Shown in pieces: positions 1,256 to 4,274 of a stretch of 4,274 nt of DNA (position 1 is its first letter; each line of letters starts with the position of its first letter). The DNA is from a virus (taxonomy: Duplodnaviria > Heunggongvirae > Uroviricota > Caudoviricetes). The translations under genes were made by a program, and so were the position numbers. The DNA lies in the IMG/VR virus record IMGVR_UViG_2690316115_000023. One strand, given 5' to 3'. Under the pieces are notes generated by a model. It saw only the letters and a list, made by a program, of their open reading frames with translations, searched no databases and had not been told where the DNA came from.

Positions 1256-1624
1256 GTTGGCAGCCTCCTCAGTGTGGTTAAGATAACCGCCACCGGAAAC
1301 GCCAATTTCGCTGGTGGCGGACTGTACAGGGTTGGCGTAACCGGACACTGAAGAAACCGGCGCGGATTGCTCCGCCCCCGTACAGCCCACCATTGATAAG
1401 GTGTGACTATGCGGCACAAAAAAACACGCGGGGCGCGTGTTATGCGCTTCAGTTTTGCCCAGGACGCCAATCCCGGCACCCGTTTTATGAGGTGCGCGGG
1501 AATCATAGCTATTTTCGACACTGGCGATCAACTGGTTTTTTTCTCCGATATTCAGGGCCAGAAAACGCCACACAAAGGCCGTTTGTGTGTGTACAAGGTG
1601 TGGTATATGATTTACGGCAACCAT
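1064..1624 (-). CDS. Two-domain read-through ORF (186 aa): tandem paralogous domains, tentatively Icd-like (host cell division inhibitor-like), joined by a Gly/Ser-rich linker
   Basis: ATG at 1624 with AGGAG 5 nt upstream (the ORF-track extension to GTG 1723 has no SD). The N-domain (PHLVHTQTAFVWRF...TEAHNTRPACFFV) and C-domain (PTLVHSQTAFLWRF...EREARSRCPSGCVAVFAARIRQEV) align with several synonymous codon differences (CAC/CAT, ACG/ACC, CGT/CGC), indicating protein-level conservation. There is no in-frame stop between them. TAA stop at 1066..1064. Confidence 0.5.
   Translation of the reverse strand: MVAVNHIPHLVHTQTAFVWRFLALNIGEKNQLIASVENSYDSRAPHKTGAGIGVLGKTEAHNTRPACFFVPHSHTLSMVGCTGAEQSAPVSSVSGYANPVQSATSEIGVSGGGYLNHTEEAANMATIPTLVHSQTAFLWRFIIFGASEHQIIHVTAWTEREARSRCPSGCVAVFAARIRQEVCHVQ
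1418..1440 (-). terminator. Intragenic intrinsic-terminator-like hairpin inside the first Icd-like domain
   Basis: On the minus strand: ACACGCG-CCC-CGCGUGU (7-bp GC-rich stem, 3-nt loop) followed by U6. It lies within the codons for NTRPACFF. Confidence 0.4.
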
Positions 1625-1654
1625 AACGGCTCCTAGTTTACGTTGTTGGTTAGA

Positions 1655-1697
1655 AGCCCTGCGAGTGGTAATGACACTTGCGGGGCTTTGCTTTTTT
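1655..1697 (+). terminator. Plus-oriented intrinsic terminator upstream of the RHH promoter region
   Basis: 13-bp stem (1655..1667 with 1675..1687, two G-U pairs), 7-nt loop, followed by UUGCUUUUUU. On the minus strand the two G-U pairs become C-A mismatches, so the structure is strand-specific. Confidence 0.55.
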
Positions 1698-1725: not shown

Positions 1726-1748
1726 AACAATGGAAAGGCTAATTCAAT

Positions 1749-1760
1749 AGGTGACCACTT
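1749..1760. promoter_or_regulatory. Palindromic operator-like site 2 (AGGTG-AC-CACTT)
   Basis: Near-perfect inverted repeat overlapping the SD and start codon of the RHH gene; 35 bp from site 1. Confidence 0.45.
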
Positions 1761-1950
1761 GTCAACAATCAAACGCGATAAAAGCCCTAAAGGGGACGGG
1801 CAATCCCCACAATTCAGAATGCGAATTTCTCCAGAGCTAAAAGAGCAATTCGACAAAGAAGCACAGAGCGACGGCATAAGCCTAGCCAACTGGCTTAAAG
1901 AGTTGGGGCGCACTGAACTAAAGCGGCGCGGCATAGAACCCAAAGGATAA
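1759..1950 (+). CDS. Ribbon-helix-helix (Arc/Mnt/CopG-type) DNA-binding protein (63 aa from TTG 1759; 43 aa from ATG 1819)
   Basis: FRMRISPELKEQFDKEAQSDGISLANWLKEL fits the RHH fold pattern: a beta-strand with alternating residues, then helix A, a G-x-S turn and helix B (compare Mnt FNFRMPMEVREKLKFRAEANGRSMNSELL). The TTG start has AGGTG 5 nt upstream, overlapping the second palindrome. TAA stop at 1948..1950. Confidence 0.65.
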   Translation: MSTIKRDKSPKGDGQSPQFRMRISPELKEQFDKEAQSDGISLANWLKELGRTELKRRGIEPKG

Positions 1951-3032: not shown

Positions 3033-4274
3033 CTACACGGCTCGGATACCCCTTTTACCACTGGCGAGGGTTACGCCCGTCGCCGCAGCCTCGACAAATT
3101 CGCCCCACCAGCGCATCAGCACGATGCGTTTTTCTATGTAGTTGCTCCGGTTGTATGCCCGTCTAACTTCGTTGGTGTCGACGTGGGCAAGTGCCGCCTC
3201 TATTACGTCCGGCTCGAATCCTTCCTCGTTCGCTGCTGTGCTGAATATGGCGCGTAATCCATGAGACACCAGCACGCCAGCGAATCCCATACGCCGCAAT
3301 GCTGCGTTAGCTGTCTGGCTGTTCATCGGCTGCTGTGGGTCTTTCAGACTTGGGAAAACGTAATTGCGGTGGTGGCTGATTGGTTTCATGGCCTCCAGCA
3401 CCGCCATAGCCTGACCGGAAAGCGGGATAACGTGATCCCTGCGCATCTTCATACGTCCGGCAGGTATCGTCCATTGCTTCGCGTCCAGGTTGATTTCATC
3501 CCACCGCGTTGATGACGCTTCGGCGGGACGGGTTACGGTCAGTAACTGCCATTCAATCAGTAATCTGGTCTGCCGTTCTGTTGCCGATACTGATAAAGCC
3601 TGCATAAGCTCCGGCAGCTGTTCGGGGCGGATTGTTGGCATATGTTTTTTTACAGGTGAGGGAAACGCCTTACGCACATTCATAGCCGGATTGGCATCAA
3701 TCAGCCCACTGTTGGCGGCGTAATCCATTACCTCATTAACGCGCTGTAAAACCCGCTTGAGTGTTTCCAGGTTGCCGCGCTCCTTGATGGGGGTAAGCAC
3801 TTCAACGAACCTTCGGGCGGTGAGGGTATCTATTGGCGTGTTGCCGATGAACGGGAATACATATTTATCCAGCGAACGCCAGATGTCTTTAATCGTGTTG
3901 GGGGCCAGATTCTGGCTGATTTTCACCTGGTACCATGCCGCCGCCACATTTTCGAACGTGTTCCCTTGTCTTCGGGCCTCTGTCTCTCTTTTTTGCCTCT
4001 CGTGGTCCTGCGGGTCAGTTCCGGCACTGATTAACGTCCTGTACTCGCTACGGCGTTTTCTGGCATCAGCCAGGGAAACATCTTCAAGCGATCCAAAACT
4101 CAGCAATATTCTTTTTTTGTCCGATGGTCGGTAGTAGGAAAATCTCCAGAGTTTTGATCCAGACGGTTTGACCAGGAGAAAAAGCCCTCCGCCGTCCTGC
4201 AGGGTGTACTCCTTTTGCGCTGGTCTGGCTGCTTTGATCTGCACTGTGGTTAATGGGTGTGTTTTTCTCACCAT
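3033..4274 (-). CDS. int: Site-specific tyrosine recombinase, P4-type phage integrase family (413 aa)
   Basis: The N-terminus (KEYTLQDGGGLFLLVKPSGSKLWRFSY) is the typical P4-like integrase arm-binding region. The C-terminal catalytic domain carries TVTRPAEA (box I Arg), SHGLRAIFST (HxxR) and LAHV...RAYNRSNY (His and catalytic Tyr). ATG at 4274..4272, TAG stop at 3035..3033. The RBS and promoter lie outside the window. Confidence 0.95.
   Translation of the reverse strand: MVRKTHPLTTVQIKAARPAQKEYTLQDGGGLFLLVKPSGSKLWRFSYYRPSDKKRILLSFGSLEDVSLADARKRRSEYRTLISAGTDPQDHERQKRETEARRQGNTFENVAAAWYQVKISQNLAPNTIKDIWRSLDKYVFPFIGNTPIDTLTARRFVEVLTPIKERGNLETLKRVLQRVNEVMDYAANSGLIDANPAMNVRKAFPSPVKKHMPTIRPEQLPELMQALSVSATERQTRLLIEWQLLTVTRPAEASSTRWDEINLDAKQWTIPAGRMKMRRDHVIPLSGQAMAVLEAMKPISHHRNYVFPSLKDPQQPMNSQTANAALRRMGFAGVLVSHGLRAIFSTAANEEGFEPDVIEAALAHVDTNEVRRAYNRSNYIEKRIVLMRWWGEFVEAAATGVTLASGKRGIRAV

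Follow-up and report, generated by a model that had tools for sequence, protein, structure and literature searches.

The stretch of DNA analyzed here (4,274 nucleotides of IMG/VR virus record IMGVR_UViG_2690316115_000023, hereafter the window) carries on its minus strand an operon in which an Icd-like gene is followed by DUF4222 and then by replication genes (Table 1). The gene that would be the target of the regulation discussed below is represented in the window by just a 28-codon remnant, fused to an isrK/C4 cassette; this remnant aligns with intact Icd-like genes of 65 aa, with homology beginning at about position 1541, and it continues in frame through the RNA genes. An intact Icd-like gene, linked to C4, is also present. 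By homology annotation only (NF033153), the Icd-like protein is a cell division inhibitor; it is not visibly hydrophobic.

Table 1. Features of the window, with the evidence by which each was assigned
Feature	Position	Strand	Basis
Intact C4-linked Icd-like gene, 63 aa	1064-1255	-	NCBIfam NF033153, 60.3 bits versus cutoff of 25
C4 antisense RNA (P1 c4/P4 CI type)	1310-1397	-	Rfam RF01695
SD-like AAGGTG	1398-1403	+	Read in sequence; spacer between isrK terminator and C4 5' end (other strand)
Shadow ORF, 75 codons from ATG	1409-1636	+	Nonconserved; codon-aligned antisense frame of minus-strand ORF
isrK-like sRNA with own terminator (stem 1441-1423)	1419-1495	-	Rfam RF01394
isrK promoter, TTGATC, 18 nt, TATGAT; +1 near 1495	1502-1531	-	PWM score 11.02; terminator/promoter scan
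Icd-like remnant, 28 N-terminal codons; ATG 1624-1622, SD AGGAG 1634-1630	1541-1624	-	Alignment with 65-aa genes
Candidate sRNA promoter, TTGTGT (1583-1588), 17 nt, TATGAT (1606-1611)	1583-1611	+	PWM score 9.84
Predicted cis-antisense sRNA, ca. 80 nt (SL1, SL2, and U-tail)	about 1618-1697	+	Predicted fold
SL1, predicted 5' stem-loop; 12-nt loop GCUCCUAGUUUA carrying anti-SD CUCC	1619-1651	+	Predicted fold
SL2, predicted intrinsic terminator; tail GCTTTTTT at 1690-1697	stem 1653-1667/1675-1689	+	Terminator scan, folding
Two operator-like repeats, AGGTGACCAC(C/T)T	1714-1730, 1749-1765		Lie over promoter region
Candidate operon promoter, TTGACA (1765-1760), 18 nt, TAGCCT (1741-1736); +1 near 1729	1736-1765	-	PWM score 11.25
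Small RHH (HicB-like) regulator gene, downstream of terminator	1819-1950	+	Weak Pfam HicB match, E = 0.0035

Both RNA genes of the cassette are matched over their full length by Rfam models: the isrK-like sRNA scores 66.0 bits against a gathering threshold of 50 (E = 4.6e-13, model positions 1 to 77), and the C4 RNA scores 77.6 bits against a threshold of 45 (E = 1.2e-14, model positions 1 to 87). The predicted isrK +1 falls on the first position of the Rfam isrK model, and a promoter (TTGATT/17/TACACT) can be read from the alignment at the matching isrK position of a diverged homolog, L089. A minus-strand read-through ORF of 186 aa is open in near relatives. We considered this ORF as a fusion protein and rejected it, since its middle is the isrK/C4 RNA region and substitutions there change amino acids freely. 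The "Icd-like" or "ash family" coding sequences that annotation pipelines draw through 1226-1507 are largely translations of the two RNA genes.

On the plus strand, the original prediction had recognized what looked like a complete gene, with AAGGTG lying 5 nt before an ATG at 1409, an ORF ending at 1636, and a terminator beyond it. The signals themselves are present as described; by sequence reading and the ORF list, the ATG stands five bases past the motif and the frame is open to a TAG at 1634-1636, giving 75 codons from this ATG or 77 from a GTG at 1403. There are 17 ORFs of at least 70 codons in the window, however, and 5 of the 17 have a 5-mer SD match 4 to 12 nt before the start, one more of these five being spurious as well; an ORF plus SD such as that at 1398-1636 is no more than chance expectation. 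The frame is the codon-aligned antisense of an open minus-strand ORF (1064-1723). In codon-aligned antisense frames, stops arise only opposite TTA, CTA, or TCA, and such frames are a well-known source of long spurious ORFs. The plus-strand ORF shares this codon alignment with an open frame on the other strand, but it differs from the usual shadow ORF in that the opposite "ORF" is partly noncoding RNA (isrK); since that stretch is noncoding, the openness of the plus frame over the 44 codons opposite isrK is plain chance (ca. 0.12 in random sequence). In this regard, the description of the ORF as facing the first Icd-like domain holds only in part. It is accurate for 1541-1624, where the 28-codon N-terminal remnant lies, whereas 1409-1540, about two-thirds of the ORF, faces the isrK-like sRNA gene and its promoter rather than Icd-like coding sequence.

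Comparison with homologous islands lends no support to a complete plus-strand gene. Stops in the plus frame of such islands, which the original prediction had named as telling against the ORF, cut it 8, 22, or 46 codons before CAT in 27 of 55 distinct homologous loci; the TAG stop is lost or moved in 25 of the 55, and there is no conserved start. These stops are synonymous Icd-like codons, namely, CTA (codons 10 and 24) and TCA (codons 48 and 62), and more generally, changes that are silent in the Icd frame (CTT/CTG/CTA, TCC/TCA, GCA/GCC, and ACG/ACT) appear as stops or replacements in the plus frame. Opposite isrK, substitutions among diverged isrK/C4 homologs track RNA pairing and include 1-nt indels; in L089 to L091, these indels are frameshifting, the SD AAGGTG is absent or rearranged, and there is no ATG. 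Three near-identical relatives (L001, L006, and L088) retain an intact ORF. Searches of Pfam and NCBIfam returned no family at E ≤ 0.01. None of the properties expected of a small gene (a frame, start, and stop that are kept, a silent bias in its own frame, and a family match) was found for this ORF, and the sequence comparisons show it to be a chance noncoding shadow frame. It should not be annotated as a gene.

The terminator, which had been placed on the plus strand ca. 20 nt past the ORF stop, was borne out; the SL2 stem begins 16 nt past the stop codon, and its G-C core is reached after 20 nt. The terminator scan gives a stem of 15 pairs (8 of them G-C) and a loop of 7 nt, followed by the tail to 1697. 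Folding yields -27.6 kcal/mol for the plus-strand RNA versus -16.3 kcal/mol for the minus-strand RNA, in which C·A mismatches replace two G·U pairs and weaken the fold. We rejected a bidirectional terminator, since the stem on the minus strand is followed by UCUAACCAAC and not by a U-tract. Judged by its z-score against shuffled sequence (z = -6.0) together with its conservation with covariation, SL2 is beyond chance. Each of the 40 distinct 5' regions in the first class of hairpin-linked Icd-like genes has it, as does each of the 57 in the second; protein identity between the two classes is only 44 to 49%. The sequences compared are nearly all from islands of E. coli and Shigella, which recombine and thus are not independent lineages. 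Among 22 variants, 95.5% of the stem cells are paired, compensatory changes occur at two pairs (AU<->CG and GC<->CG), and seven pairs vary through G·U wobble alone, with all wobbles valid on the plus strand only. The plus-strand fold is the more stable in 22 of 24 variants (mean, -24.3 versus -17.9 kcal/mol) and in 57 of 57 second-class sequences. In 54 variants, the tail averages 7.2 T in 12 nt, compared with 28% T overall, and 52 of the 54 have at least 6 T in 12 nt; in roughly half of the variants, the U-tract is interrupted (e.g., CGTCGTTTC), and termination there would be less efficient. SL2 lies upstream of every hairpin-linked Icd-like gene examined, and Icd-like copies linked to C4 are without hairpins. 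L116 and L125 have an unrelated hairpin where SL2 would be. Homology between islands ends right after the T-tract of SL2. A G+C-rich stem with a U-rich tract and selection on the structure of one strand are properties of intrinsic terminators that SL2 displays, and it is predicted to terminate transcription.

Immediately before SL2, the plus strand is predicted to form another stem-loop (SL1), and the two hairpins plus the U-tail would make up a short RNA (1618-1697) with a predicted folding energy of -35.5 kcal/mol (z = -5.2). In three diverged representatives, z for the SL1-SL2 fold ranges from -5.2 to -6.4, and the same two-hairpin fold is predicted in L003, L092, and 57 of 57 distinct second-class sequences. 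SL1 folds in each of 11 sequence classes (-8.0 to -14.0 kcal/mol on the plus strand versus -4.4 to -6.1 kcal/mol on the minus strand). The anti-SD sits in or next to its loop; as read from the predicted folds, it is inside the loop in 8 of the 11 classes. RNAalifold, run on a MAFFT alignment, recovered SL2 but, owing to misalignment of the classes within SL1, no more of SL1 than its 4-bp base; the evidence for SL1 thus rests on the class-by-class folds. The predicted RNA would cover the SD, the ATG, and 73 nt of leader and is fully complementary to the 5' untranslated region and SD of the minus-strand Icd-like ORF and to its first two codons, overlapping the plus-strand ORF in the last ca. 18 nt of the latter alone. 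An Rfam search of this RNA found no family, and permissive thresholds gave noise alone. Overlap with the initiation region of a target and stable stem-loops with a recognition loop, as expected of an antisense sRNA, are both predicted in silico. SL2 probably ends an undescribed antisense RNA of ca. 80 bases over the ribosome-binding site of the first operon gene. One suggestion of the original prediction, that the terminator ends an antisense regulatory RNA, is therefore favored by the comparative evidence, with the amendment that the RNA is much shorter than the ORF.

The candidate promoter of this RNA lies within the Icd-like coding sequence and has the second-best PWM score on the plus strand; the best hits in shuffled sequences have a mean of 8.6 and a 95th percentile of 11.6. 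The best plus-strand score (10.35) belongs to a promoter-like site at 1257-1284 (TTGGCA/16/TAAGAT), which we rejected because its -10 is not conserved in diverged homologs. Both candidates fall within the shuffled-sequence range, and so PWM scores alone prove nothing. The -35 of the sRNA promoter, TTGTGT, is poor. Its -10 reads T-A-T-G-(A/C)-T in every hairpin-linked class, and T1, A2, and T6 never vary among about 100 distinct sequences. In the second class, the -10 is extended by TGn and reads TATGAT in 55 of 57 sequences; the two exceptions, TATTAT and TATAAT, alter an Icd-like His codon yet keep or improve the -10. Throughout, the -10 stands 6 to 7 nt from the SL1 base, even where the Icd start codon is shifted by 8 nt. 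A synonymous-site test was weak because synonymous diversity in the gene is too low: the Icd-like gene is almost invariant at synonymous sites overall, which leaves promoter and codon constraints inseparable.

To the right of SL2, the candidate operon promoter has the best PWM score on the minus strand, and TGTCAAC is kept in the RHH-type relatives L003 and L006. If this promoter is in use, the mRNA leader contains the complements of both SL2 and SL1. Each island type has its own palindromes immediately past the T-tract. The L003 homolog of the RHH gene is a HicB-family antitoxin by PGAP annotation.

We hold, with moderate confidence, that the plus-strand ORF is a shadow frame and that the locus encodes a short plus-strand unit giving a ca. 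80-nt cis-antisense sRNA, which would repress initiation of the Icd-like gene. Under this model, a sigma-70 promoter in the first Icd-like codons would drive a unit starting near 1618, and the transcript would consist of SL1 followed by the SL2 terminator (1653-1689) and a U-tract ending at 1697. Such an RNA would be perfectly complementary to the leader, SD, and start codon of the first gene of the minus-strand early operon. Pairing with the Icd-like mRNA most likely would begin at the anti-SD in the SL1 loop, and the duplex would block ribosome binding and/or trigger duplex cleavage. In this way, a putative cell division inhibitor and the downstream operon would stay shut off for as long as the island is quiescent. 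Observed, and in support of this model, are hairpin structures that are strand specific, conserved, and covarying, a constant distance between the -10 and SL1, and an ORF that is not conserved; we infer that the promoter fires, that transcription terminates at SL2, and that the RNA represses translation.

Several other readings of the locus were weighed. SL2 may be an insulator only, stopping stray plus-strand transcription that originates within the minus-strand operon before it reaches the operators, the promoter, and the RHH gene, with no discrete RNA being made. In every island type, the operators and a small regulator gene on the plus strand do follow directly after the terminator, the strand preference and U-rich tail of SL2 would suit any plus-strand terminator, and statistically the case for a promoter driving a discrete sRNA is weak. 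However, an insulator leaves unexplained why SL1 is plus-strand specific in 11 of 11 classes, why the -10 is held 6 to 7 nt before SL1 while the Icd start moves, and why His-codon changes preserve or improve the -10. Moreover, the hairpin stays with the Icd-like side across more than 12 unrelated right-hand regulator modules. Insulation of the RHH promoter, which also had been raised in the original prediction, is conceivable but explains less than the antisense RNA, with the second hairpin and the fixed -10 spacing unaccounted for, and we consider it unlikely to be the whole function of SL2. Alternatively, the plus-strand unit may be a leader or attenuator, in which transcripts would start at the promoter within the Icd-like gene and mostly end at SL2, and the portion reading through would be the mRNA of the RHH gene (or of YlcI/YnfO in other islands). 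No strong RHH promoter was found between 1697 and 1819, where the best candidate (TTGCTT/18/TAAGGT) scores 6.46, and many variants have imperfect U-tracts that would permit read-through. There is also a precedent in the neighboring module type, in which some isrK transcripts pass the isrK terminator and form a downstream mRNA (PMC4825925). We nevertheless regard attenuation as distinctly improbable, given that the operators lie downstream of the terminator, as expected for a regulator with its own autoregulated promoter, and that homology between islands breaks exactly after the T-tract, so that the putative leader and the gene are not inherited together. Attenuation would in any case be compatible with the antisense RNA and not exclusive of it.

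The hairpins also could act in the minus-strand mRNA leader, as a 5' stabilizer, a protein site, or a means of occluding the Icd start, with the T-run on the plus strand being incidental. With the promoter at 1765-1736, both hairpin complements would fall within a 105-nt leader; the SL1 complement would pair AACCA with a UGGUU that includes the start codon, and the motif UCUAACC is invariant. We find this very hard to reconcile with the pattern of variation, since all of the wobbles are plus-strand G·U pairs, whose minus-strand counterparts are C·A mismatches, and since the minus folds are the weaker ones in 22 of 24 SL2 variants, 11 of 11 SL1 classes, and 57 of 57 second-class sequences. In addition, each unrelated right-hand module supplies a U-rich tail anew, for which the minus strand offers no rationale. 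Least credible of all, in our opinion, is that the ORF is a lineage-specific 75-aa protein, made from a plus-strand mRNA of ca. 400 nt running from the promoter-like site at 1257-1284 to the terminator. This site has the best plus-strand score, an SD-like AGGTG stands 5 nt before the ATG, and the frame is intact in the three near-identical relatives, but the TAAGAT box, SD, ATG, and frame are all lost in diverged homologs. The C-terminal half is broken by stops in many homologs, there is no protein family match, the first 29 codons are simply a structured sRNA gene, with pairing-led substitutions, read as its reverse complement, and chance would be expected to give the window an ORF with an SD-like motif.

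The antisense RNA that we propose has its closest parallel in sar of phage P22, a cis-antisense RNA of ca. 68 nt whose promoter lies at the start of its target gene, ant, and which runs back across the ant ribosome-binding site to its own terminator upstream; the immI region also encodes the small RHH repressors Arc and Mnt. Here, too, a promoter in the first codons of the target would drive an RNA that crosses the SD and AUG and ends at a terminator in the leader, with an RHH gene as neighbor. There is, however, no sequence similarity, and the RNA here has no Rfam match. The target of the candidate RNA would be Icd-like and not an antirepressor, and the element is a satellite of the phage-inducible chromosomal island (PICI) type and not a phage. 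SymR (which acts on SymE), Sok, IstR, and Sib likewise are short, structured antisense RNAs opposite the 5' end and ribosome-binding site of a small harmful protein, and SymR is transcribed from a promoter within its target ORF, immediately past the start codon. Since P1 Icd inhibits cell division, constitutive antisense repression of an Icd-like gene would match the logic of these type I toxin-antitoxin systems. Unlike typical type I toxins, Icd-like proteins are not hydrophobic membrane peptides, and the gene is the first of a long operon and not a solitary one. Plasmid countertranscripts (ctRNA, CopA, and RNA I) are also antisense RNAs of ca. 80 nt with two stem-loops and a loop complementary to the initiation region of the target, although there is no replication control context at the locus studied here. 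The candidate RNA scores 15.1 bits against the ctRNA_pGA1 model, for which the gathering threshold is 45; the resemblance is one of shared architecture only, and the candidate therefore is not a member of this family.

The immunity RNAs P1 c4, P4 CI, and Gifsy-1 IsrK control similar genes (icd, followed by antirepressor or replication genes), and RNAs of these families (RF01695 and RF01394) are physically present on the minus strand of the window. IsrK is transcribed from a promoter of its own and ends at a terminator that leaks (PMC4825925), matching the promoter that we found at 1531-1502. Those RNAs share a strand with their target, arise from the leader by processing or by termination within it, and act via short complementary boxes, whereas the candidate RNA would be on the opposite strand, fully complementary, and associated with Icd-like copies without C4.

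The module made up of the hairpins and the Icd start was matched in 889 of 5,426 complete E. coli genomes. In NZ_CP062160, IEM32_RS16520 (3363852-3364049) is the Icd-like gene, with the hairpin immediately past it. A profile search of genome contigs with the Icd-like alignment gave one locus alone and no cross-genus diversity; the phage collection had no match to the module, and the plasmid collection had three records with it, all from E. coli. From these collections, the module looks confined to Escherichia and Shigella islands. The literature that we consulted on EcCIEDL933, PICI antisense RNA and alpA, Icd-like genes, isrK/C4, and the Esr41 and Pas sRNAs describes no terminator, antisense RNA, or Icd-like gene at this locus.

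The PICIs of E. coli and Shigella have been described as unidirectionally transcribed and without a repressor, and the early operon of Gram-negative PICIs (including those of the capsid-forming EcCIEDL933 type) is thought to be controlled by the activator AlpA only. One tentative possibility, about which we remain doubtful, is that E. coli and Shigella PICIs carry an undescribed, conserved, two-hairpin cis-antisense sRNA of ca. 80 nt directed against the ribosome-binding site of the first early gene, beside a divergent RHH/YlcI-type regulator with island-specific operators, and that these constitute a missing negative layer that operates until AlpA induction. If this is true, a conserved antisense RNA, a repressor-like gene, and operators would add negative control to the PICI early operon. 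Since the targeted leader and ribosome-binding site are nearly identical among many islands, the sRNA could also act in trans on coresident islands. The module of an EcCIEDL933-type island among those compared (L002) is nearly identical to that of the window.

The 75-codon plus-strand ORF at 1409-1636 had been noted for its complete gene-like punctuation, all of which is present (AAGGTG at 1398-1403, ATG at 1409, TAG at 1634-1636). In homologs, neither the frame nor the SD, start or stop is conserved. Among 55 distinct Icd-like loci from IMG/VR, homologous islands do carry stops in the plus frame, 8, 22 or 46 codons ahead of CAT 1622-1624, in 27; the TAG is missing or displaced in 25, and the 55 share no common start. 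The interrupting stops are reverse complements of synonymous CTA or TCA codons of Icd-like, which argues that selection acts on the minus frame only. CAT 1622-1624 is itself the minus-strand ATG, and the plus frame is the codon-aligned antisense of the open minus frame, an arrangement that yields long spurious ORFs. ORFs of 70 codons or more number 17 in the window, and an SD-like 5-mer precedes a start in 5 of them. In three diverged homologs (L089-L091), the sequence opposite isrK has neither the ATG nor the SD of the plus ORF; it carries 1-nt indels, and its substitutions keep the RNA stems. A Pfam and NCBIfam search returned no family matching the ORF, and the best promoter-like site upstream of it (plus strand, 1257-1284) is not conserved. 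Judged by these comparisons, the ORF is not a gene and can be dismissed as ordinary.

The ORF was also said to lie opposite the first Icd-like domain. This is correct for a 28-codon remnant; elsewhere, the opposite strand encodes the isrK-like sRNA and its promoter. The ORF is thus antisense to the gene and promoter of an sRNA and to a gene remnant, and its SD and ATG fall within the spacer separating the isrK terminator from C4. [quoted passage not shown]

Features of the window and their coordinates
Feature	Position	Strand	Remarks
Integrase	3033-4274	minus	
AlpA-like regulator	2330-2536	minus	
Operon	start ATG 1624	minus	
Candidate operon promoter	TTGACA 1765-1760 / TAGCCT 1741-1736	minus	
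Icd-like remnant	1624-1541	minus	28 N-terminal codons
isrK promoter	1531-1502	minus	TTGATC/18/TATGAT; predicted +1 is first base of isrK model
isrK-like sRNA	1495-1419	minus	Rfam, 66 bits
C4 antisense RNA	1397-1310	minus	Rfam, 77.6 bits
Intact Icd-like gene	1255-1064	minus	63 aa; after C4
Small RHH (HicB-like regulator) gene	1819-1950	plus	
62-codon ORF		plus	same unit as RHH gene
Second strong terminator	2271-2303	plus	AGAAAGGCGGCTCC...GGGGCCGCTTTTTT; plus-specific; ends RHH and 62-codon ORF unit

The plus-specific hairpin after the ORF (SL2, 1653-1689, followed by GCTTTTTT) fared better, and is a real, conserved, strand-specific terminator. Its plus-strand RNA folds at -27.6 kcal/mol; replacement of two G·U pairs by C·A mismatches weakens the minus-strand fold to -16.3. 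Each of the 40 distinct 5′ regions from the first class of Icd-like proteins has a hairpin at this place, ca. 28 nt past the Icd-like start codon, and it recurs in 57 of 57 sequences of the second class; proteins of the two classes are only 44 to 49% identical. Across 22 variants, 95.5% of cells are paired (slid controls, 35 to 56%). Double compensatory changes are seen in two pairs (AU↔CG in 9 sequences, GC↔CG in 8), and seven pairs vary solely via G·U wobble, which only the plus strand can form; the plus-strand fold is the stabler in 22 of 24 variants. The 12 nt past the G-C core average 7.2 T (28% T overall), with U-tracts interrupted in many variants, and more than 12 unrelated right-hand modules supply the U-rich tail separately. 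At two loci (L116 and L125), an unrelated hairpin (GAGGCUG.GAAAGGA...UCCUUUUCAGCCUC) occupies the position of SL2, and both the adjacent hairpin SL1 and the -10 box are kept.

Folded as plus-strand RNA, 1618-1697 is predicted to form two hairpins (-35.5 kcal/mol; z = -5.2), of which the second is SL2 and the first, SL1 (1619-1651), displays an anti-SD CUCC in its loop. Each of the 11 sequence classes is predicted to form SL1, with energies of -8.0 to -14.0 kcal/mol for the plus strand and -4.4 to -6.1 for the minus strand. A -10-like hexamer lies 6 to 7 nt ahead of its base. First-class sequences have TATGAT or TATGCT here; in the second class, which also has a TGn extended -10, 55 of 57 sequences have TATGAT. 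The two exceptions (TATTAT and TATAAT) replace an Icd-like His codon, yet keep or perfect the -10. The second-class Icd start codon is 8 nt nearer the hexamer, with the same hexamer-SL1 spacing. Icd-like copies preceded by C4 are without the hairpins. Together, the hairpins and the spaced -10 box suggest a compact transcription unit for an RNA of ca. 80 nt that would be complementary along its full length to the Icd-like leader, SD and AUG. The promoter scores no better than the best shuffled-sequence matches, the coding context of the -10 box confounds its conservation signal, and the sequences compared come from E. coli and Shigella islands that recombine, and so do not represent independent lineages.

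Most likely, given the conserved SL1, -10 spacing and SL2, the terminator marks an undescribed antisense sRNA, one of the roles that the original prediction had allowed for it; we infer its transcription, its termination and the repression it would exert. The most probable function of this candidate RNA is cis-antisense repression: it would pair with Icd-like mRNA, blocking translation initiation on the gene that heads the early operon and encodes a putative cell-division inhibitor, and possibly also lowering mRNA stability. P22 sar and SymR, to which we liken this action, repress initiation of target translation in cis, and the candidate would join the cis-antisense sRNAs, a familiar class, as a new member. 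If the candidate operon promoter is used, the mRNA leader would hold the entire sRNA target. Three other roles are less likely. SL2 may insulate the regulator gene, as had been suggested for the RHH promoter; the plus-strand unit may be a leader or attenuator of that gene; or the hairpins may function in the minus-strand leader. Each of these accounts for less of the evidence than does an antisense sRNA. A conserved, strand-specific terminator that most likely marks an sRNA is of moderate interest and open to direct test.

The candidate RNA has no match among Rfam families. A weak sub-threshold similarity to the plasmid countertranscript family ctRNA_pGA1 (plus strand, 1620-1701; 15.1 bits versus a gathering score of 45) reflects a common two-hairpin shape, not membership. 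The publications consulted on phage-inducible chromosomal islands (PICIs) describe transcription in one direction under the control of AlpA, and they do not mention the element.

The window covers the end nearest the integrase of a phage-satellite island of E. coli. In strain JNEC-KY176, a near-identical copy (99.4% over 1200-1830) runs on into genes for a helicase, a PerC regulator, an HK97-type capsid protein, a protease and a portal protein, a gene order that gives it the layout of a capsid-forming PICI. Plus-specific terminators stand at both ends of the plus-strand cassette and should let minus-strand transcription through; that at 2271-2303 is head-on to alpA. Sharp mosaic junctions occur at ca. 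1541 and 1696: many E. coli islands match 1541-1696 only (Icd start, SL1 and SL2), others 1200-1659 only, and others 1641 onward only. Island-to-island homology stops exactly past the T-tract of SL2, and homology of the window to the intact 65-aa Icd-like genes in other islands begins at ca. 1541. Recombination seems to have brought into the island's Icd-like gene an isrK-C4-icd cassette of the type found beside ymfL and DUF4222 genes in e14-like prophages.

Two 17-nt repeats of the form AGGTGACCAC(C/T)T, AGGTGACCACCTAACAA and AGGTGACCACTTGTCAA, flank the candidate operon promoter at 1714-1765; they lie 35 bp apart and overlap the perfect minus-strand TTGACA. At this spot, the palindromes differ by island type, and so does the small plus-strand regulator that goes with them (RHH/HicB-like, YlcI/YnfO and others). 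Repeats and regulator resemble a repressor with its operators, which these islands are said not to have.

Two further minus-strand frames deserve comment. A single 186-codon frame (1064-1624) runs from the remnant ATG through the isrK promoter, isrK and C4 in frame into the intact Icd-like gene, and is likewise open in two relatives (L006 2021-2584 and L088 659-1225; 94.8 to 100% identical), where substitutions in its RNA part alter amino acids freely. Translation of minus-strand 1226-1507, exactly the isrK/a1b1 and C4 RNAs plus the C4-to-icd spacer, gives a match to Pfam Phage_ASH (PF10554, 63 bits); PGAP labels this stretch in related genomes an “ash family protein” or merges it into a 185-aa “Icd-like protein.” At least here, the family appears to be a translation of conserved RNA genes. 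The second frame, of 221 codons (1650-2315), is antisense to the RHH gene and the 62-codon ORF, stops at a TAA inside an invariant GGTTAGA and is labeled a hypothetical protein by PGAP in relatives. It is well above the length expected by chance in random sequence; a composition rich in Cys, Ser and Arg, with conservation confined to the part opposite RHH, suggests a further shadow ORF. In the relative L003 (2387-3313), its counterpart is open for 308 codons, across both hairpins and in frame into Icd-like.
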